From positions 100,008,001 to 100,072,000 of the forward strand of contig NW_024704742.1 in the NCBI RefSeq assembly GCF_018977255.1: a DNA stretch of 64,000 nt, written 5' to 3'. This DNA is from Callorhinchus milii (lineage: Eukaryota). Every line of letters begins with the position of its first letter. Position 1 is the stretch's first letter. The translations under genes and the position numbers were made by a program. Below the pieces are notes generated by a model. The model was not told the DNA's origin, searched no databases, and worked only from the letters and a program-made list of their open reading frames with translations. Positions 6,507-62,814 of this stretch are shown here, piece by piece.

Positions 6507-7659
6507 GATACGCAACTCGAGTACAATATGCCCATTCACTTTCATAATTTGATTAAAGGCCAGATCACATCAGAGGCTGCTCTGTGTGCTGTTTGCACAA
6601 TGGTGAATGTTAACATTTCAAAGAGATTGGTATAAAGGAAGAAAAATGAAAGCAATGAATTCTATTCAGGGGCTGGATCGTGGAGAAGGGAATATTGTAG
6701 GGAAGGGAATATGGGTGACCCAGTAGCGGTCTTGATCCTCTAAAACATCAAGGTGGTGGTATATTACAAGTGGTCCTGTATTGTTCCCACCTTGCTGAAG
6801 ACAGCTGGCTGTCGAATAGCTGATGAAGAAATTCTGAGGATTAGGATAGCAGCTGCTGCAAACATTACTTGGAGTCCTGGGTTTGTGAACACTTGCTTAT
6901 ATATCTGGGACTTGATATCCACCTTAATTGGTATTCAGAGAGGAAAGCAGCTGCTGCTCAAGCTCAGCACCTCCAACTGGTGGAATCATCGCTCAATACT
7001 TAGAGACGTGTATCCAAGTCGTGGGCAGCATGATAGCAATGCTTTCACACATTTCATGCTAGGTTATGTTGCTTGCTCACAAGGAGTCCCTAGTACCAGC
7101 TATCCATCAAGCAAGGACTCAAACCCGTGCTTGGTGAGTCTCGAATGACCAACTGATGACCATCCATTTCGCCCACAAAATATTACAGTCAATTAATTTT
7201 ATAGTACTCAAAGGCACTGTTCATGACAATCCATCTAGCCTAGATCATCTGCATGACTTAGAAGGTCAGACTAGTCACAGAGGGTAGAGATTCTTTCCAC
7301 TCATTTCCTAATTTCCATGTATAGATTCTGTACGTATTGGAACTGTCAATCTGGTTTGGATACTCATAAGCACGGTGATAGATGGGTTTCCATGGGTGAC
7401 AAACACTCAGCTGACCCAAATCAAAATGGTGTGTGGATTAATAGAGGCTGTGAAGTGAGTTTTCTTTCATAAAACTACATTTATTGAAGTACTTCTCTGT
7501 TGGGTTCCTTAGTTCTTTTGTAGTTGAATTCACTTTTCCCTTTTCTAAAATGAAATTTGAATAAAGGAGAGCAGTAATGGCAGTGTAAAAGCCGCAGCTC
7601 AAAATGATCGAACGTTGGATAAATTAGTGGTATAAGACTAATGTGTTCACATTGTGTTT

Positions 7660-9570: not shown

Positions 9571-11104
9571 CATAGACATATCCAAAGAAACAAATCTTTT
9601 GCAAACACACTCTGCATTCTCTTAATTACGATAATCATTGATGCTACGATTTGACTAGGAATGGGTAAAAGATCAGTCAATATTTTGCTACTGGTTTCAG
9701 TCACTATGCACTCTGAAACACTTTCCCTAAATACCTCTGTGCTTTCAAATCTACCTCTTTCATAGTCAATTCCCTCTACCCCACACCACTCCCCCATTTA
9801 CCACTTTGTTTGTATCTCGACTCCACCACTGCCCTTGTAGCTGTTACTCTACGTGAAAGACGATGTATAAATGTTGCAATCATTGGCCAGCATTGTTGGA
9901 CTCATTCGGGTCAAATTGGCAGTACTCATAACCGGGATTTGTTTCATTAATTGCAACTTTCCCTTTACGGAATTTACAACAAAACTGCAAATGAATTGTG
10001 AGGCAAACTCACAACGCCAGGGTAGAAACAGCATTGGCAGCAAGTCATTTAAAACAAGCACTGTCACAGATTTAAATGTTTANTTTTTTAAACCCTCTCT
10101 CAGCAGGACCAGGGCAGTCAGTTTCCTCAGGATATGTTGAAGAAACTATTTGCCTTGATTGTAAATTCTTTGGTTTTAATCCCACACCAAAACTACATCT
10201 GTGCTTTCCTCTTTATATGTTGCCACCCGGATATGGAATGGCATAAACAACAAATTAATTACTTTCTCAAGAAATGCATCCTTTTGAGTTCTTTGCCTTG
10301 CGATTTATTTGTGGGCTTGTTCTCATATTTTTATATGCTCCTCATCCAGCCATATGCATAACATCTCACTTTCTAGTTCGTCCAAACCACAAGTCTCTAT
10401 GTATGCCAAAAGCAGTTATCCAGACCCATTATAAGTTGTAAATTATTGACAGCTGACTCCAGTTTATAGTGAACAGCCACAACAGCAATAATATTGAGAG
10501 TTTTTCAAATTGTACGGCTTTTCTGTCCGTCTCTCTCTCTTCCCTCCTGCAGTTTTTTGGAGGTATACATTACTGCCAGCGCAATCTCTTTGTATTTCAG
10601 ATCTTAACAGCACAGTTGTCCATGTGTTCCTACAACAAACAGAATAGTTATTCTTGTGAGAAACATTTGTCAATCTCAGCGACTTTGTGAAAGATGTCAC
10701 GGAAACGTGTCATCCACACACTCAGTCAGTTTGTCTTTGCTTAATATACAATGTTCAGCTTTGCACCACAATCATAATCTTAAATTTTACCTAAGGATCG
10801 CATCCCTGTTGTATATTTAGCTCTGAATATTGATCGCACTTTCCTGCTATTCGCAGGAGAAATGAATGAATGAATAAATAGTGTCTGTAATACCAGAACG
10901 CAAAGATTTGGGTGTTCACACTGCTGAGTTGGAATTTTCAATGCTGTTTGCAAACTATGTTCAACAGACAAGTAATAAACTATAGCAAGCTGCAGAGGCA
11001 CTATGGACCTCAGAGACAACAAGGTTAAACTAATAATTTGTTATTATTAAGAATATTAATTAAAAGGCCAAAGTCCAGAGTGCAGGACACCACCAAAGCT
11101 GAAA

Positions 11105-11335
11105 AGGAAGAAAGAACTTGCATTTTTCATCGCCTTTATCAAATAATAATGTCTCATAGTGCTTCACAAATAGTTACAATAAGATGTAGTGATTGTTTTT
11201 GTAGGTAGATGTAGACTTTGGCAGCAAAATGCCACAAACAGCCATGAGGTGAGTGCCCGGTTAGTCTGGAGGATTGTAGGCCAAGACATCAGGGAATTAC
11301 TCCCTTTTCATTCCAAATAATTTCCAGGGTTCTGT
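11105..11335 (-). mobile_element. Old degenerate DeuSINE-type remnant
   Basis: aagaaagaacttgcattt..ccacaaacagccatga..ggccaagacatcaggga resemble the reverse complement of the Deu body and tail. Confidence 0.55.
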
Positions 11336-11364
11336 AGGATAAATAGGGAGAACCTAAGACTACA

Positions 11365-11494
11365 GGCAAATAACTGCATATGCTGGAAATCTGGTATAAA
11401 CACAGAATGCTGGGAACACACAGCAGGTCAGGCAGCATCTATGGAGAGAGGAAAATAAGTTAACGTTTCAAGTCAATGACCTTTCATCAGAACT
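11365..11494 (-). mobile_element. Short Penelope-like (pLTR-type) insertion with 17-bp TSD
   Basis: Flanked by gagaacctaagactaca (11348-11364) and gagaacctaggactaca (11495-11511). Body gatgctgcctgacctgctg..ccagcatt resembles an abundant chondrichthyan Penelope-type terminal repeat (recalled, not searched). Confidence 0.8.
11458..11494 (-). ncRNA. Minimal type I hammerhead ribozyme motif
   Basis: Minus strand AGUU-CUGAUGA-A-AGGUC-AUU-GACUU-GAAA-CGUU-AACU: conserved core, 5-bp stem II, palindromic AACGUU at helix III, 4-bp stem I. Confidence 0.7.
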
Positions 11495-12045
11495 GAGAAC
11501 CTAGGACTACATGGCTGAGATATAGAGAATCCTTTTGGGGAATGGAGACTTCATCCTGAGTATTAGTTCAGGACTCAAGCTATACAACAAGATTAGGGAT
11601 ATAGAGAAACTAGACTAAAGGAACAGAGGCCACACTCCCCCTTCCTCTGTTTCCATTTCAAAGACAGCTGGGGAAAATTGAGATTCTATAGGAATATCTG
11701 TATTGCTCAGTTTTTTATGTTGGACACAGCATCAGCCCATTATTGCTCGTGGCTCTTTTTGAACATGAATGTTGTCTATGTATTTGGGATGAAAAATTTG
11801 ATATTTCATAAAAGATGTGATCAAATCTTTATTTTTTTTACATTATTCAAAGACATAATAAATTAATAAATAGCAATTAGCTGATGTCAAGATTGTGGAT
11901 TGTTAGGGGAGAGGAAGAAAATGATGATGACGGGGGGAGAGAGGAGGGAAAAAAGTTCTTCAGTCTTGAGGTTACTCGACAGTTGTGAGTCATGAATTCC
12001 AAGTGCAGGCATCAATCCTTTCTCTCTAAAATCGGCACATTCATG

Positions 12046-12216
12046 TTCAATCCACAACTGTTTGTGGGACACTGGTGTGCGCAATTGGCTGCTGCGTTTC
12101 ACCCACAAAATATACGGTCAATTCACTTTACAGTATATTCTGTGAAGAGCTTTGAGACGTCTAGAAGACGTGAAAAGCTATATCAAATGCAAGGATTATT
12201 ATTATTTATTATTATT
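12046..12216 (+). mobile_element. SINE 3' half
   Basis: Body, gacgtctagaagacgt stem-loop and (TTA)n. Confidence 0.9.
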
Positions 12217-12569
12217 AAAGCACATACAATATCAGAGACGATTCCTAGATATTTTATGGGAGATTTATGACCTTTGGTGCACGTTTGTATTCAATCTTCT
12301 TTGAAATAACTTATTTGCAGTTTCATAAAAATCTCTGGAAGGGAGCAAGACACATTGCACATTACCAACTAAAGCATTTTACTCTTTTTTTAATAAGCCA
12401 GAATTCAAAACTATGTAAACATAGAGATGTACATGTAAATATTTACACATCAAAAAGTATGTGTTAATGCTGGGTCAGAGCTGGTGTTAGTGTAATGACA
12501 GGGAAAAGCCATTAAGTGCTCACAGCAGGGCCAGAACAGAATTGTACAGAGGTGGTATAGGGCCAAGAG

Positions 12570-27849: not shown

Positions 27850-28395
27850 AACCATACCTAATATGAAGCCCAAAATCTGCTGTCTCAACCCTCTTTCCAC
27901 CCATCTGTTGGTCACCCACCTCCCACTCCTCTGTCTCTCGCTGGCAGACACTGTTAATCTGTTCCTCTCCTCAGGATCCGTCCCACTACCATTCAAAACC
28001 ATTATCATCACTCCCCTCCTGAAAAAACCCACCCTTGATCCTTCTAACTTTGCAAACCACTGACCCATTTCAAACTTGCCCTTCATTTCTAAAATCCTGG
28101 AACACATTGATGGCGACCAACTTCGCTCACACTTCTCCCTACACTCCCTATTCGAGTCCCTCCAGTCTGGATTCTGCCCTACTTTCAGCACCGAGACATT
28201 GCTTGTCAAATTCACAAATGACGTCCTCTTTCTCTGTGACCAGGGCTCCCTTGACCTCCTTGTGATCCTGGATCTCTCTGCTGCCTTCAACACAGTCGTT
28301 CATTGCCATCCTCCTCCACCACCTATCCTCCCTCAGCTACCTCAGTGGGATCGCACTTGCCTGGTCCGAGTCCTCCTTAACCAACCATCATATCA
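27850..28395 (+). mobile_element. L2 ORF2 (RT) fragment, 5' part of a split element
   Basis: SSGSVPLPFKTIIITPLLKKPTLDP..PFISKILEH..QSGF..STETLL..LDLSAAFNTV (ORFs 27830 and 28076). Confidence 0.93.
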
Positions 28396-30226
28396 AGACA
28401 GATTGTAAGAACTTTTACAAGTATATACAGAGGAAGAGATTAACAAAATTAAATGTGGGTCCCTTATAGGCCGAGACAGGAGAAATTACAATGGGGAATA
28501 AAGAAATGGCAGAGTCGCTAAACAAATATTTTGCTTCTGTCTTCATGTTAGAAGATGCTAAAAGCTTACCAAAAATAGTGGGGAACCAAGAGACTAATGT
28601 TAGTGAGGAACTTAAAGAAATGAATATCAGTAAAGTAATAGTACTAGAGAAAATGATGGGACTAAAAACTGATAAATCCCCTGGACCTGATGGCCTGCAT
28701 CCTAGGGTTTTAAAAGAGGTGGCTGCAGAGATAGTGGATGCATTGTTTTTGATCTTCCAAAATTTTCTGGATTCTGGAATGGTTCCCGTTGATTGGAAGA
28801 TCGCAAATGTAACACTGCTATTTCAGAAGGGTGGGAGAGAAAAAATGGGGAACTATAGACCAATTAACCTGACATCGGCGGTAGGGAAAGTTCTAGAGTC
28901 TGTAATTAGGGACGTCGCCATGAGGCACTTAGAAAGTCATCATATGATTAGGCAGTCAACACGGTTTTATGAAAGGGAAATCATGTTTAACAAATCTTTT
29001 AGAGTTTTTGAAGATGTAACTAGCAGTGGATATGGTATATTTGGATTTTCAGAAGGCATTCGACAAGGTGCCGCATAAAAGGTTGTTACATAAGATTAGG
29101 GCTCATGGAATTTAGGGTAATATATTAGCATGGATCGAAGACTGATTAACAGGCAGAAAACAGAGAGTAGGGATAAACGGGTCCTTCTCAGATTAGCAGG
29201 TTATGACTAGTGGGTGCCACAAGGATCAATGCTTGGGCCTTAATTGTTTATAGTCTACATGAATGATTTAGATGAGGAAATAGAGCTTAATGTATCTAAA
29301 TTTGAGGACGATACAAAGCTAGGTGGGAAAGTAATCTGTGAGGAGGACACAAGGAGGATGCAAAGGGATATAGACAGGTCAAGTGAGTGGGAAAGAAGGC
29401 GGCAGATGGAGTATAATGTGGGGAAGTGTGAAGTTATTCACCTAGGTAGAAAAAATAGAAAAGCAGATTATTTTCTAGAGGGGGAGAGACTAGTGTAGGT
29501 ATTCAAAGGGATTTAGGTGTCCTTGTACACCAATCACAGAGAGTTAGTTTACAGGTACAGCAAGCAACTAGGAAGGCTAATAGCATGTTAGTATTTATTG
29601 CAAAGGGGTTAGAGTACAAGAGTAGGGAAGTCTTGATGCAATTGTCCAGGGCCTTGGTGAGACTGCACCTAGAATATTATGTGCAGTTTTGATCTCCTTA
29701 TCTAAGAGAGGATATACTTGCCTTAGAGTGGGTTCAACTTAGGTTCACTAAGTTGGTTCCTGGGATGAGGGGGTTGACCTAAGAGAAGAGGTTGAGTAGA
29801 CTAGGCCTATGTTCTCTAGAATATAGAAGAATTAGAGATGATCTTACAGAAACCTATAAGATTCTTAAGGGTTTTGACAGGGTAGATATTGTGAGACTGT
29901 TTCCCCTGGTTAGAGAATCTAAAACTAGGAGTCATAGTCTCAGGATTAAAGATCAGCCTTTTAGAACTGAGTTGAGAAAACATTTCTTCACTCAGAGAGT
30001 AGTGAATTTATGGAATTCTCTACCCCAGAAAGCTGTGGATGCTCATTCATTGAACATATTCAAGACTGAGATTGATAGATTTTTAAAAACTAAAGGGATT
30101 AAGGGATATGGGGATAGGGCAGGCAAATGGAATTAGGTTAGAAGATCAGCCATAATCTTATTAAATGGCAGGGCAGGCTTGAGGAGCTGAATGGCCGACT
30201 CCTGCTCCTATTTCTTATGTTCTTAT
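28396..30226 (+). mobile_element. CR1 LINE, 5'-truncated 1.8 kb, disrupted RT ORF2
   Basis: KSPGPDGLHPRVLKE..NYRPINLTS..YMNDLD..SKFEDDTKLGG..FFTQRVVNLWNSLP, frameshifts and stops, 3' end cctatttcttatgttcttat. Confidence 0.96.
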
Positions 30227-30740
30227 CACTTTGCCTCTGCAAAGTCTTTTCCTCCTGCCCCGCACAGTTACCTGCAGCATACAAATGCTATTATTGCATT
30301 TAGAACCTCCTGCTAACTAGTTTATCAAGAAATGTAACTTCAGTCAACAATTCTACAAAATGCAGATTAAAAAAAAGATTCCATCCTCTGCCCCTTCTTT
30401 TCCTTATTTACATGCTCCCTCTCGGTAATGTCATACACAACATCCATATGTATACGGACGACACCCAAATCTACTTTTTCTCCTCCAGCTGTGATCCCAG
30501 ATCCTGATGATCAGTCCTCTTGCTTGTCACACATCAAAGCCTGGACGAGTGCCAACTTTCTGTAGCTGAATGTTGACAAGACGGAGGCCATACTTCTTGG
30601 CTTCCGTCAATGTCTTCTCACCTGTGGCTCTGACATCCTTAACCTCCCCAGCCTATGCCTCAATCCCTCTACCTTGCCTCTTCCTTCCCCGTCTTCCGAT
30701 CACACCTGAAGATCTTCCTCTTTGACCATGCTCTTTGACC
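30227..30740 (+). mobile_element. L2 continuation (3' part of the element split by CR1)
   Basis: SILCPFFFLIYMLPLG..HMYTDDTQIY..IKAWTSANFL*LNVDKTEAILLG. Confidence 0.88.
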
Positions 30741-50325: not shown

Positions 50326-50454
50326 TGTGATGTACGTTTTCAAAATAATAGTGGATGCGCAATATACCTTCTTGACTTTCAGACAGTTCTGTCACTTCCT
50401 CGCGCCATTTTTCAAACCTTCCACACTAAGTATTCCTTTTTATTTCTATTCCTC

Positions 50455-53400
50455 ACTTCTTCCCTGACCTCCTCCATTGCCCCCCGTCCAACCACCCCTC
50501 CCTCCCTCTCTGGCTTTGATCCAAGTATAGGCACAAGCACCATCCCTTCTGTCTCCCCTCTATGCTGTCCCCCCTAGCCCCCACCATGTCTGTGGGCTGA
50601 TGATGCCCCACTGATCGCCTTGCTCCCAGCCTCGAGGTGCATATTTGGCTGTCGCCCCGACCCGAGCCACCCCGTCCCAAAATGCCCCCACTCGTACTCC
50701 CCACCCTTTGTTACTCACACTCAATCCTTCTCTCCTCCTGTCCTCCCCGTCTTCCTCTCCCACCTGGACCCTCCCACGGCCTCCCTCTGCTCCAGCATGG
50801 GCATCCTCCGTCGGGCTCACTGCGGCACTTGGCAATGGCGGTTCCAGAGCAACCACCCTGACTGCCACATCACCCACACACTCCACAAGGACTGCCTCCC
50901 TCGCCTCTGACAGGTAAACTCCCCTTCTCTCGTCCACATCCTTCCCAACTCTCATATTTCCTGTGTCCTGTCCACATCCTTCCCCTCATACCCAACAGTC
51001 GTTTTCCCCCCACAATCTAGAAGCCCCCAACCCCTCCCCCGCCTGTGCCCTCACTCATATCGCCTTCAAAATGTCCACTCCCTCTCAAATAAAGCTCTTA
51101 CAATTGTCCACCTCATCCTGGACAAATAATTCGATGTTCTCAGGCTCACGGAAACCTGACTCTCCCCCGGTGACCCCACTCCCCTCGTCGAAGCCTCCCT
51201 GCCTGGTTACATTTCTCACCACACCCCGCTCATAATGGGTTGATTTCAATCTTTATCTGAATTCTCCCTGCCCCATCTCCTCTGACTTTGCCACCTTCCT
51301 CTCCACCCTAAATCTCACCCTCCATTTAAACTCCCCGACGTACAACCATGGCCACCCCCTTGACCTCAACACCACCCATGGCCTTGACATCTCTGATTTG
51401 ATCATCACAGACAAGGCCATCTCAGACCACTTCCTCTTCTCCCTCTCCTTTCATATCACCCTCCCCTCCTCCATCTTTATCTGCCAATGGAAAAAGCTTC
51501 CCCTCACTTCCCTAACAAATGCCCTCTCATCCTTGAACCTTTTCTTCGTCTGGCCTCCCACCCACGGTGATCCAAACGCAGCTATCAAGCTGCTAAACAA
51601 TCACCTCTCCTCAACTTTCAATTCCTTGTCCCTTTGATAGCCAGGTCTGTCGCCAAGACTCCGCCTCCCCCTTGTACAGCATTCATCTCCGCTCCCTCAA
51701 ATCCCAAACCCAGTTGCTTGAGCACAGATGGCACAAAACCAGCCTCACGGTTTACCGACAACTGTGGCTCCAGCATCTTCATACCTACTGCCACTCCCTC
51801 GTCTAAGCTAAAATCACCTTCTATTCACAGGTCATTCTCGGGGCCAAAAACGAAAGTCCTGTTCTCACCACCTCCTCCACGCCCACTCTCAAGCAGCCTC
51901 AATCCTCACTTCCTCTGCCCACTGCTGACTGGCACAATCAACCAGTCCCTCTCCTCAGGTTCTGTCCCATTCCCCCTCAAAACCACTCTGCAGCCCGTGT
52001 CCTCTCCTGCACCAAACTCCATGACCCCACCTCCCCCACTCTCACCCGACTCCATTGGCTCCCTATCCTTCAGAGGATTCCAGTTCAAGATCCTGGTCCT
52101 CACATATAAAGCCCTCCATGGTCTCGCCCCACCCTACCTCTGCGACCTCCTAACCCCCTACCAACCTGCCCGTTCCCTCTGCTCGGCCGGCTCTGGACTG
52201 CTCCACGTCCCCCGACTCACCCGCCCCACCATTGGCAGGAGAGCCTTCAGCTACTCTGCCCCCAACCTCTGGAATTCCATCCCCCAGTCACTCCGTCTTG
52301 CCCCCTCCTTAGCCTCTTTCAAGTCCTGCCTCAAGACCCTCCTCTTCGACCATGCCATTGGCCACCCCCCTTCCCCTCCCCCTCCTTACCCCCCAACCTA
52401 GCTCAGGTCTGAAATGCTGTACTCTGTCCAGCACCTTGGGAAGTCCTCCCGACGTTAAAGGCGCTATACAAATGTAATCTTGTTGTCGTTGTCATCACTC
52501 CTCTCCTTAAAAATCTACCCTGGATCCCTCCAACCTCACAAACTTTAGACCCATCTCAAACTTGCCCTGGCCAAAGTTTTGGAACGCGTTGTTGCAAATC
52601 AACTTAGTTCACACTTCTCTCCACTCCCTACGCAAACTCCTCCAGTCCGGTTTTTGCCCTGCTCACAGCACAGAGACAGGACTCGTCAAGGTAATAAATG
52701 ATGTCCTCTCTCTGTGACCAGGGCCCTCTCTGCCTCCTCGTTCTCCTGGACCTCTCCACCACGTTTGACACAGTCGATCACCACATCCTTCTCCACTGCC
52801 TCTCCTCCCTCATCCACCTTAGTGGGATCACACTTACATGGTTCAAGTCCCACTTAATGAACTGCCAAAAATACATCTCAGCAATTGTTTTTTCCTCCTG
52901 TTCCCCCAGTCATGTGTGGACTATCCCAAGGCTCCACACAGGTACCCCTTCTTTCCTTACCAGGAACATGGAGACAACTTCCACATATATGTGGATGACA
53001 CCCGAATCAACTTCTCTTCCAGCTGCGACTCTCATTTCGCTGATATCCTGTCAGCTTGTTTGATGGACATCAAGGCCAGGATGAGCGCAAATTTCCTGCT
53101 GCTGAATGTCAGCAAGACGGAATCCATACTTCTTGGCTCCCATCAACATCTTCTCTCCTGCGGGTCTGAACTTCGCAACCTCCCTCAGAATCACCGAACC
53201 CATGTTCAACTTAGGCGTCAGGTTCGATCCACAGCTTTTCTTTCTGCACCACACCCATTCCCTGACCAGAATTACTGTTTTCCACCTCCGTTATGTTGCC
53301 CGCCTCCATTTGTATCTCACAACCAACGCAGCTGAAATTTTTGTCCACACCATTGCCACTTCCCAGCTGGACTATTCCAATGCCCTCCCCGCTGGTCTCC

Positions 53401-53830
53401 CCAGCTCCACCGTACATAAAATGCAATTAATCCCAAGTTCCACCGCCTACATTCTCAGCCACACAAAACTCCATACCCCCATCACACCAGTCCTTGCCAG
53501 GCTCCACTGGCTCCCAATTACCGAAAGGCTCAATTTCACGATCCTCTCACTCATTTTTAAATCCCTTCATGCCCTCGCACCTCCTTACCTATCCGATTTA
53601 ATCATCCCCCACTCCACCACCCACTGCCTCCACTCGGCTGGCTCCGGGCTCTTGTTTGCCCTTGTCCACACCACTCCACCATCAGTGGCTGTGCCTTCAG
53701 CCACTACGCCCTGAAACACTGGAACTCTCTCCCTCAATCCCTCCACCTTGCTCCGCCATAGTCAAGCACTCCAGGACGCTACTCTACGTGATGGGCGCTA
53801 TATAAATACAAGTTATTGTTGTTGTTGTTG
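50455..53830 (+). mobile_element. Near-full-span, internally deleted L2 LINE (APE endonuclease and RT remnants)
   Basis: LQNVHSLSNK..LTET, G-DFN, TYNHGHPLDL, ISDHFL (APE motifs 51060-51440); LLDLSTTFDTVDH, IYVDDT, LDYSNAL..LHWLPI (RT and C-terminus); tail (TTG)n. Confidence 0.92.
51988..52490 (+). mobile_element. L2 3' fragment nested inside the older L2
   Basis: FKILVLTYKALHGLAPPYL..LWNSIPQSLRLAPSLASFKSCLKTLLF with its own tail. Host sequence resumes at 52491. Confidence 0.9.
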
Positions 53831-57869: not shown

Positions 57870-58516
57870 AGGGTGGATGAAGGCAGTGCAGTTGGTGTAG
57901 TTTATATGGATTTTCAAAAGTCGTTTGATAAAGTGCCATATAAGAGACTTGTAAGCAAAATAGAAGCCCACGGTATTACAGGGATGTGACAGCATGGATA
58001 CAGAACTGGCTGGGAGACAGAAAGCAGAGAGTGGTGCTGAACGGTTGTTTTTCTGACTGGAGGGAAGTCTGCTGTAGTGTCCCCCAGGGATCAGTAATGG
58101 GACCACTGCTGTTTTTGATTTATATAAATGACTTGGATTTGGGGCTAGGGACTACAATTTCCAAGTTTGCATATGATACTAAGCTAGGAAAAGTAGTAAG
58201 CAGTGTGGAGGATAACAGTGAGGTCAGTAACCCAAGGACTCTGATTTAAAATAGTTGTTAAAAGAAACAGAGGGGAGGTAAAGGGAAATTTTTTTACACA
58301 GCGAGTTGTTTGGATCTGGAATGCATGGTCTGAAAGGGTGGTGGAAGCCGATTCGATAACAGCTTTTAAGAGAGAAATAGATAATTATTTGGGGAGGGCA
58401 AGTGTGCAGGGCTATGGGGAGAGAGCGGGGGAGTGGGATTGAATTGGATAATAGATTTGAATTGGAAAGAGCCGGCACAGACATGATGGGCCAAATGGCT
58501 GTGTAATTCTATGATA
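57870..58516 (+). mobile_element. CR1 LINE fragment with an internal deletion near 58220
   Basis: MDFQKSFDKVP..WIQNWLGDRKQRV..VPQGSVMGPLLFLIYINDLD..SKFAYDTKLG, then jumps to the 3' end. Confidence 0.93.
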
Positions 58517-61467: not shown

Positions 61468-62155
61468 CAACAACAACACAACAACAACAACAAGATTCCA
61501 TTTATAAAGCGCCTTTCACGTCAGGAGGACGTCCCAAGGCGCTGCACAGTTGGGTCATGACCCGAGCAGGGGGGAAATGGTCAGGGTGAGGGGAGGGATG
61601 GGAGGGAGCGAGGAGGGGGAAGAGAGTCGAGAGGGGAGCTGAAGGCTCGGTCAAAGAGAAAGGTTATGAGACCGGCCTTGAAGGAGGAAAGGGAGGAGGC
61701 GGCGAAGGCACTGGGGGATGGAGTTCCAGAGCCTCGGGGCTGAAGGCCCGACCACCAATGGTAGGGCGATTGGGGCGGGGGACGTGGAGCAGACCGGAGC
61801 CGGAGGAGCGGAGGGTACGGGCAGGTAGATAGGGGCATAGTAGGTTGGAGAGGTAGGAGGGAGCAAGGCCGTGAATGGCCTTGTAGGTGAGGATGAGGAT
61901 CTTGAAATCAATCCTCTGGGGGATGGGGAGCCAGTGGAGGCGAGCGAGGGTGGGAGTGATGTGGTCCCGAAGCCTGGTGCGGGACAGTACACGAGCTGCA
62001 GAGTTCTGAATGACCTGCAGCTTGTGGAGGGAGGTGGCGGGAAGGCCAAAGAGGAGAGAGTTCCCATAGTCCAGCCTTTAGGTGACAAAGGCGTGGACCA
62101 GGGTTTCAGCAGCATGAGGGGTGAGGTAATGGCGTAGTCTGGCGATGTTCCGGAG
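61468..62155 (-). mobile_element. Young L2, 5'-truncated (~690 bp)
   Basis: LRNIARLRHYLTPHAAETLVHAFVT*RLDYGNSL..LHWLPIPQRIDFKILILTYKA.., CpG-rich, (TTG)n tail. Confidence 0.96.
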
Positions 62156-62814
62156 AACATCTTCTCAAAGTTAAGAAGATGCAAAATATTTTCTGTTTTA
62201 AATATATTTTATGATTTTATTTGCTGTGAATCTTCATTTTCAATACAGGATAGGTTTGCACATTTGGTTTTATATTGTTAAATAATGTGTGAGATATTAC
62301 ATAGCTCTTCCTTGAACATGCAGTAGTTGAAAGAACAAATGCTACACAAGGAAAATAGATGGCAAGCCTGCTTTATAACGATGAGTGAAGCTGATCTGTT
62401 ATTGACTTCCCGTGCGATATGCGCCCTTATTGAAGGGCATTTTCCATGAGTGCATAACCTGGAATGTACCTGCACACTTAATGGAAATCACCTTTAAGCG
62501 ATTTATCCACAACATAAAAACTGGTCCTTTTCATTGCAGATTTCATGCATCTGCCCAGATTTTCAATTCCGTAAATTGCTAGGAATTTGTGGAGAGTAAT
62601 GCAAAGAAATCCAAGTTGCTCTCAGTTCAGAACAGTACGTTATATGGATACAGCCACCTTGTTTAAAACCTAATCAGGATGAATATGAAATTAGGAACAT
62701 ACAGGATTGGAAAAGATTCTTTTGGCCCATTTATCTTATCGATTTCCAATTTGTTGTCACAATTTGGCTCCACATGCAGAAACATTTCAGGCATGAGTAG
62801 ACCAGTGATCTATC

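Follow-up and report, generated by a model that had tools for sequence, protein, structure and literature searches.

A solitary hammerhead-bearing repeat copy, probably the truncated 3' end of an old Penelope-like retroelement

Positions 11365-11494 of the window, by which we mean the whole 64-kb stretch of DNA that was analysed, hold an old, solitary 130-bp copy that is likely to be the 5'-truncated 3' end (part of a pseudo-LTR and the tail) of a retroelement of the Penelope-like kind (PLE), and the ribozyme that it carries is predicted to be inactive here. The feature is real, and most likely it is an old truncated PLE end of a kind already described. Its parts are the following.

11348-11364, no strand: left 17-bp direct repeat, likely a target-site duplication (16/17 against 11495-11511)
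11365-11494, minus strand: 130-bp member of an abundant repeat family, interpreted as a PLE 3' end
11495-11511, no strand: right copy of the 17-bp direct repeat (the 16/17 pair, with a drop in X1 contig depth)
11458-11494, minus strand: minimal type I hammerhead motif (from the sequence, a descriptor test and comparison with 56 published motifs)
11494-11491 with 11461-11458, minus strand: helix I, 4 bp
11490-11484, minus strand: core CUGAUGA
11483, minus strand: one unpaired (bulged) A
11482-11470, minus strand: stem II, 5 bp with a 3-nt loop
11469-11466, minus strand: GAAA
11466-11463, minus strand: palindromic ACGU (positions 15.2-16.2, replacing helix III)
After GAAA, minus strand: CG, then U16.1 and U17 (U17 = 11462)
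Between 11462 and 11461, minus strand: predicted cut
11365-11416, minus strand: 3' terminal part, likely the PLE 'tail' where reverse transcription starts (from an internal repeat and stepped ends)

The insertion site and its repeat family

Comparison of the 17-mers around the 130 bp gave a match at 16 of 17 positions, which confirms the direct repeats that an earlier, sequence-only reading of this DNA had placed on both sides of 11365-11494. Pairs of this quality (16/17 or better, spaced by 50-500 bp) number six in the window vs four in 20 simulations; by their coordinates, four of the six belong to SINE copies or their tails, one is the pair of the insert and one is unexplained. A second 16/17 pair outside the SINE copies, at 6843-6859 and 6941-6957 (98 bp apart), lies inside a 134-codon stop-free frame (6744-7148, plus strand) without a Pfam match and could be a small insertion or chance.

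Public contigs were aligned to 11000-11900 at 80% likeness in four runs, of which X1, X4 and X14 come from organism A, the species that carries this window, and X8 from organism B; X14, presumably RNA, has no coverage of the unique flanks. For X1, with 5,474 records aligned, the summed contig depth (which is not copy number) was 6-9 over the unique flanks, 14.4 at 11310-11340, 1,510 at 11341-11371, 15,694 at 11372-11402, about 3e5 at 11403-11464 and 14,753 at 11465-11495, and then fell to 24.7 at 11496-11526. The three other runs showed the same shape, and the edges of the family fell at the 17-mers in all four. The insert clearly belongs to a very abundant repeat family with these edges. In the contigs of the four runs, the 17-mers are specific to the locus and stand outside the family, exactly at its edges, as is expected of the target-site duplication that had been proposed. 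We infer the duplication, since an empty site did not turn up: X1, X4 and organism B all contain the insert, and no joint that skips it occurs among the best 15 of 42 joints. Paralogy offers no empty site either, the left flank being a decayed SINE up to about 11336 that the right flank does not continue.

The pieces of the family begin at 11364/11365, and one paralogous X1 contig spans 11365-11494 from end to end with 18 differences and two gaps. Six X1 paralogues among the matches listed differ from the insert by 12-22 letters in 115-130, and judged from this copy the family is therefore old. Within the window the insert is a single copy by self-comparison, and no tandem array was found over it at the locus.

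The window has 35-43% G+C save for one pyrimidine-rich stretch, and the target flanks, with 57-63% A+T, are not above its average. In its repeats the window resembles the DNA of a cartilaginous fish, which is the likely host group. SINEs with tRNA heads are abundant, and a decayed one at 11116-11336 (E 1e-15; about 64-66% identity to other copies in the window) ends 12 bp before the left 17-mer and accounts for a second peak of contig depth at 11217-11278. A Pfam scan of the 227 open frames of at least 62 aa in the window returned three weak RVT_1 matches (28064-28405, 52823-53332 and 57944-58246), which we take to be LINE-like debris, and one chance match; among these frames there was no GIY-YIG or PLE match and no host exon; the site may lie in a host intron. 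LINE-like fragments, presumably L2/CR1, were noted from weak RVT_1 matches or shared 3' ends at 50400-53720, 28064-30136, 57944-58249 and 61478-62208, and a CR1-like piece at about 28430-30140 apparently interrupts an L2-like piece that resumes near 30299.

The hammerhead motif

On its minus strand the insert has the CUGANGA core followed by a single unpaired base and stem II, then GAAA and UH; helix I is short, and a palindrome at positions 15.2-16.2 stands where helix III would be. This layout had been described from the letters as a minus-strand hammerhead core with a 4-bp stem I, stem II and a palindrome, and it is upheld both by the arrangement of the sequence and by a minimal-hammerhead descriptor, which matched one site in the window (both strands) vs none in 200 simulated windows, the simulations being first-order Markov versions of the window. 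The architecture thus stands, and the departure from it lies in stem II, which is closed by A-U followed by G.U rather than by the usual G10.1-C11.1 pair. Outside the window, the pattern had no match in viral contigs, five matches in metagenome contigs and three in prokaryote genomes; these eight loci were rejected as chance, with only 20-21 bases matched at 57-72% G+C.

In the minimal hammerheads of metazoan PLEs, as described in PMC4209133 (Cervera and De la Pena 2014), helix I is short, stem II is preceded by an unpaired base and positions 15.2-16.2 are palindromic. The insert resembles them in being of type I, with CUGANGA plus one unpaired base, a 4-bp helix I and a palindrome only, and its GAAA-CG-UU is that of 15 of the 56 motifs given there. 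It differs from their consensus in its 5-bp stem II closed by A-U and G.U, not G-C; the G10.1-C11.1 pair is reported there at above 80%, not as invariant, and A-U at this position occurs in at least two of the 56. The proposed Penelope-type minimal hammerhead of type I therefore fits that consensus save for pair 10.1-11.1. None of the 56 motifs comes from a cartilaginous fish.

The sequence-only reading had also proposed a search with the Rfam hammerhead models as a check. No hammerhead came up, either over the window with the gathering threshold applied or over 10500-12500 with E<=10; the matches were instead six chance ones (10500-12500, E<=10) and four tRNAs in SINE heads (window). The Rfam hammerhead models expect helix III, and for this reason the missing match does not count against a minimal hammerhead.

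Other members of the family were seen through majority strings of loose ends, that is, of contigs that failed to align (best 24 of 859 loose ends, with an agreement of only 0.5-0.6). In these strings stem II is G-C rich, and G-C replaces the A-U and G.U of the insert; pair 10.1-11.1 is hence changed on both sides, in the majority strings among the matches listed. One core letter is changed in two of the three majority strings that cover the core (G8 in X4 and G5 in X14).

Age of the insertion

In organism B the insert sits at this very site with its orientation unchanged, since contigs enter it from both flanks. One of them covers 11010-11407 with 65 differences and eight gaps, and a second covers 11462-11587 and 11731-11895 with 12 and 19 differences; coming from the unique flanks, they reach 43 and 33 bases deep into the insert before they end. 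Divergence is about 14% (96 differences in 689 aligned bases). Of the 12 differences in 11462-11587, the eight that are listed fall outside the insert, the other four being unlisted. The insertion is old, because a species about 14% diverged has it at the same site, and the single mismatch between the 17-mers fits such an age (chance of one mismatch or fewer, 0.29). An insertion common to two species about 14% apart is also usable as a presence/absence marker. Elsewhere in this alignment, organism B (X8) has 144 unalignable letters in place of the 143 at 11588-11730, between well-aligned flanks.

Ends of the copies, inverted partners and tail

Among the best 15 of 42 joints, 11 connect opposite strands inside the element, and in 10 of these 11 one arm starts at 11484-11496 (six at 11491-11496), the remaining one at 11463. 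The listed opposite-strand joints are head-to-head inverted copies, an arrangement described as typical of PLEs in PMC8557442 and PMC3846280. The 5' boundary of the element, which had been said to coincide with the start of the ribozyme, does lie where helix I begins, which is an end point of further copies as well. Among the matches listed, 60 X4 contigs end at 11493 with unshared flanks (agreement 0.35), and 57 X1 contigs run past 11495 with shared sequence (agreement 0.49). Longer versions exist, because these 57 share sequence upstream of 11495; the unit is a preferred end point and also the end of something longer.

Between the 5' edge of the insert and the predicted cut downstream of it there are 33 nt; this copy would therefore have come from uncut RNA. 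Two inverted joints, one in X8 (11407->11463) and one in X14 (11406->11462), fall within 1-2 bases of the predicted cut; they could be rare copies of a cut RNA, or the AACGTT palindrome could have shifted the alignment.

Toward the 3' end, a 10-nt sequence at 11380-11389 is repeated at 11407-11416, 27 nt apart, and the left ends of 25 listed paralogous pieces are stepped: 11364/5 (five), 11373-5 (six), 11380 (seven), 11390-8 (five) and 11408 (two). These are the longest pieces only, from the best 32 of 22,357, and the steps may be alignment drop-offs. The stepped 3' ends resemble the optional tail of 30-40 bp of PLEs, and our reading of 11365-11416 as a putative tail draws on the descriptions in PMC11167929 and PMC8557442. 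From the start of stem II to the 3' end there are 118 nt (11482 to 11365).

The shared sequence upstream of helix I is pyrimidine-rich on the element strand and has CAG right at helix I, as read from one X1 majority string; inspection of the minus strand showed a second acceptor-like tract, at about 11457-11441 and immediately ahead of an ATG. A pyrimidine tract with CAG at helix I recalls a 3' splice acceptor, and in the Penelope of Drosophila virilis an intron ends at helix I (PMC4209133). Candidates for the clustering of 5' ends at helix I would be the 5' end of the RNA, a structural stop and a splice acceptor.

Folding and ribozyme activity

Minimum-energy folding does not give the hammerhead, and shuffled versions of the insert are as stable as the insert itself (z 0.09, 130 nt). 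Stem II pairs with a probability of about 0.84 when the 37 nt stand alone, of about 0.2 (0.22) in the 130-nt insert and of 0.01 in genomic context (120 nt). A double-hammerhead dimer is predicted at -4.3 vs -18.9 kcal/mol for the best dimer fold; nearest-neighbour folding models ignore the tertiary core, and such energies are a guide only. Cutting of host RNA by this copy is predicted to be unlikely, since the copy is solitary, its stem II is weakened and the hammerhead fold is not predicted in context.

What is described of related motifs points the same way. Monomeric minimal hammerheads showed no cleavage in the assays cited from PMC4209133, the anole hammerhead did not cut without its protein (PMC11167929), and of nine frog dimers one was cleaved and eight were not (bioRxiv 10.64898/2026.07.22.740005). 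A search of PMC1636495 for cleavage rates at GUU found no passage on them. The earlier suggestion that any minus-strand host transcript would contain a potential self-cleavage site thus fares poorly where a working site is meant: the copy is solitary and weakened, no transcript crossing the site was identified, no host exon was found among the open frames scanned in the window, and the inactivity of single minimal hammerheads in PMC4209133 counts against it.

Discussion

The reading of the insert as a PLE end rests on several features together: a hammerhead in a terminal repeat near the 3' end, with stem II 118 nt away from it; 5'-truncated copies with inverted head-to-head partners; and, among the matches listed, copies that both stop at and run past 11493-11495. 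The insertion would have been made by the parent element's own protein. Its GIY-YIG endonuclease would have made staggered nicks 17 bp apart, and the reverse transcriptase would have begun within the RNA of the element, in the tail region some 118 nt downstream of stem II, copied through the uncut hammerhead and stopped at the 5' edge of helix I; repair would then have duplicated the 17 bp. In an intact element, two motifs may pair through the ACGU palindrome and cut as a dimer, probably with help from the protein.

The closest experimental parallel is PAc, the Poseidon element of Anolis carolinensis (Frangieh et al. 2024, PMC11167929), in which reverse transcription is reported to start inside the RNA, 111-118 nt away from where stem II begins, the genomic ends fall on those start sites and uncut RNA is the main template. 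The insert is like PAc in its hammerhead about 110-120 nt upstream of the 3' end, its apparently stepped 3' ends and a template RNA that would be uncut at the ribozyme; it fits both the start distance and the uncut template, because its 3' end lies at 118 nt and its 5' edge upstream of the cut. It is unlike PAc in that no open frame starts in the copy and the target flanks are no A+T-richer than the window. The copies described in PMC4209133 are mostly solitary ones of truncated elements, with thousands in coelacanth and Xenopus, and also occur as opposite-strand pairs, as in the family of the insert.

Several observations speak against a PLE origin. The duplication of 17 bp is longer than the 8-10 bp of the rotifer examples in PMC3846280, Rfam has no hammerhead match, two of the three majority strings that cover the core have a changed letter, and the 5' ends cluster at helix I too sharply for random truncation. 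There is also no link to a PLE reading frame among the window frames and the read-through frames of the insert, which are weak tests. The insert has no open frame, with stops in all three minus-strand frames, and its three read-through frames found no relative among longer proteins. A full protein scan with one read-through frame gave two matches, both to tandem-repeat proteins with weak summed matches, and these were rejected as chance.

The clustering of 5' ends is the point at which other readings enter. We hold it as a tentative idea, rather unlikely as it stands, that the 130-nt unit is a defined product, the uncut hammerhead setting the stop of reverse transcription or the start of the template, so that the element would mass-produce fixed-length 'strong-stop' copies bounded by the tail and by the 5' edge of helix I; such a product might possibly be a self-propagating non-autonomous mini-element. 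A dedicated mini-element, a unit of about 130 nt with its own short RNA copied in trans by PLE protein over generations, seems to us improbable. It would account for the 5' ends at the edge of helix I (the six of 11 listed inverted joints), for the 60 X4 contigs among the matches listed that end at 11493 with unshared flanks and for the one paralogue with exactly the same two ends; pLTR sequence alone is described as mobilisable in trans (PMC3846280), and non-autonomous PLE derivatives are described in bioRxiv 10.64898/2026.07.22.740005 and PMC8557442. However, the upstream sequence shared by 57 X1 contigs among the matches listed points to a longer parent, the insert has no promoter, Rfam placing no tRNA head there, and internal initiation with an early stop on the parent RNA yields the same product (PMC11167929). 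Of the solo unit mobilised in trans that the sequence-only reading had proposed, it is the independence that is doubtful: with that shared upstream sequence, the truncated end of a longer element is simpler. Still less probable, indeed very unlikely, is a monomer of a non-LTR retrozyme, in which a tandem repeat cut by hammerheads gives a unit-length circularised RNA that reinserts. Such retrozymes, with minimal or canonical type I hammerheads and solo monomers included, are reported across vertebrates, one chondrichthyan being among the hosts, and tandem retrozymes are derived from PLE ends (Li et al. 2026, bioRxiv 10.64898/2026.07.22.740005); the insert shares with them (Cervera and De la Pena 2020, PMC7229834, and the same preprint) a non-coding sequence, a type I hammerhead, a pseudo-LTR origin in PLEs and possible dispersed monomers. 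It differs in having no tandem array, with no second copy in 64 kb and no head-to-tail hammerhead units at the locus or among the listed joints, those among the best 15 of 42 being inverted. Nor are its ends set by self-cleavage, the 5' edge lying upstream of the cut; the duplication is of 17 bp, and the loop 1/loop 2 architecture of canonical retrozyme hammerheads is absent.

That the host has retained the motif for use in a minus-strand transcript, as a ribozyme that works or regulates, is extremely unlikely. All core letters are intact in a copy common to species about 14% diverged, but among thousands of copies some intact cores are expected by chance; the copy is solitary, and stem II pairing in context (0.01) or in the insert alone (0.2) and the dimer energies argue against it, as do the inactive single minimal hammerheads of PMC4209133, the anole motif inactive without protein (PMC11167929) and the eight inactive frog dimers (bioRxiv 10.64898/2026.07.22.740005). 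A chance origin of both motif and flanking repeats in unique DNA would agree with the missing Rfam match, an unremarkable folding energy and the rate of 16/17 pairs, about 0.2 per simulated window. Against it stand the 200 simulated windows with no descriptor match, and it is refuted by the coincidence of the family edges with the 17-mers to within a base; we give it almost no probability.

Read as a PLE end, this single copy matters little, solitary minimal hammerheads of truncated PLEs being known by the thousands in fish, coelacanth and frog (PMC4209133). For the family in cartilaginous fish, a full-text search found no paper, and the supplements of the 2026 preprint may list it. The family is a large natural record of the points at which PLE reverse transcription starts and stops. 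If its 5' ends pile up at helix I and not at the cut site, this would support the in vitro result of PMC11167929 on the uncut template and would be a genome-scale test of the role of the ribozyme. Were the fixed-length, strong-stop reading true, the ribozyme fold would be a boundary signal and not a cutter, which would bear on what PLE hammerheads are for.
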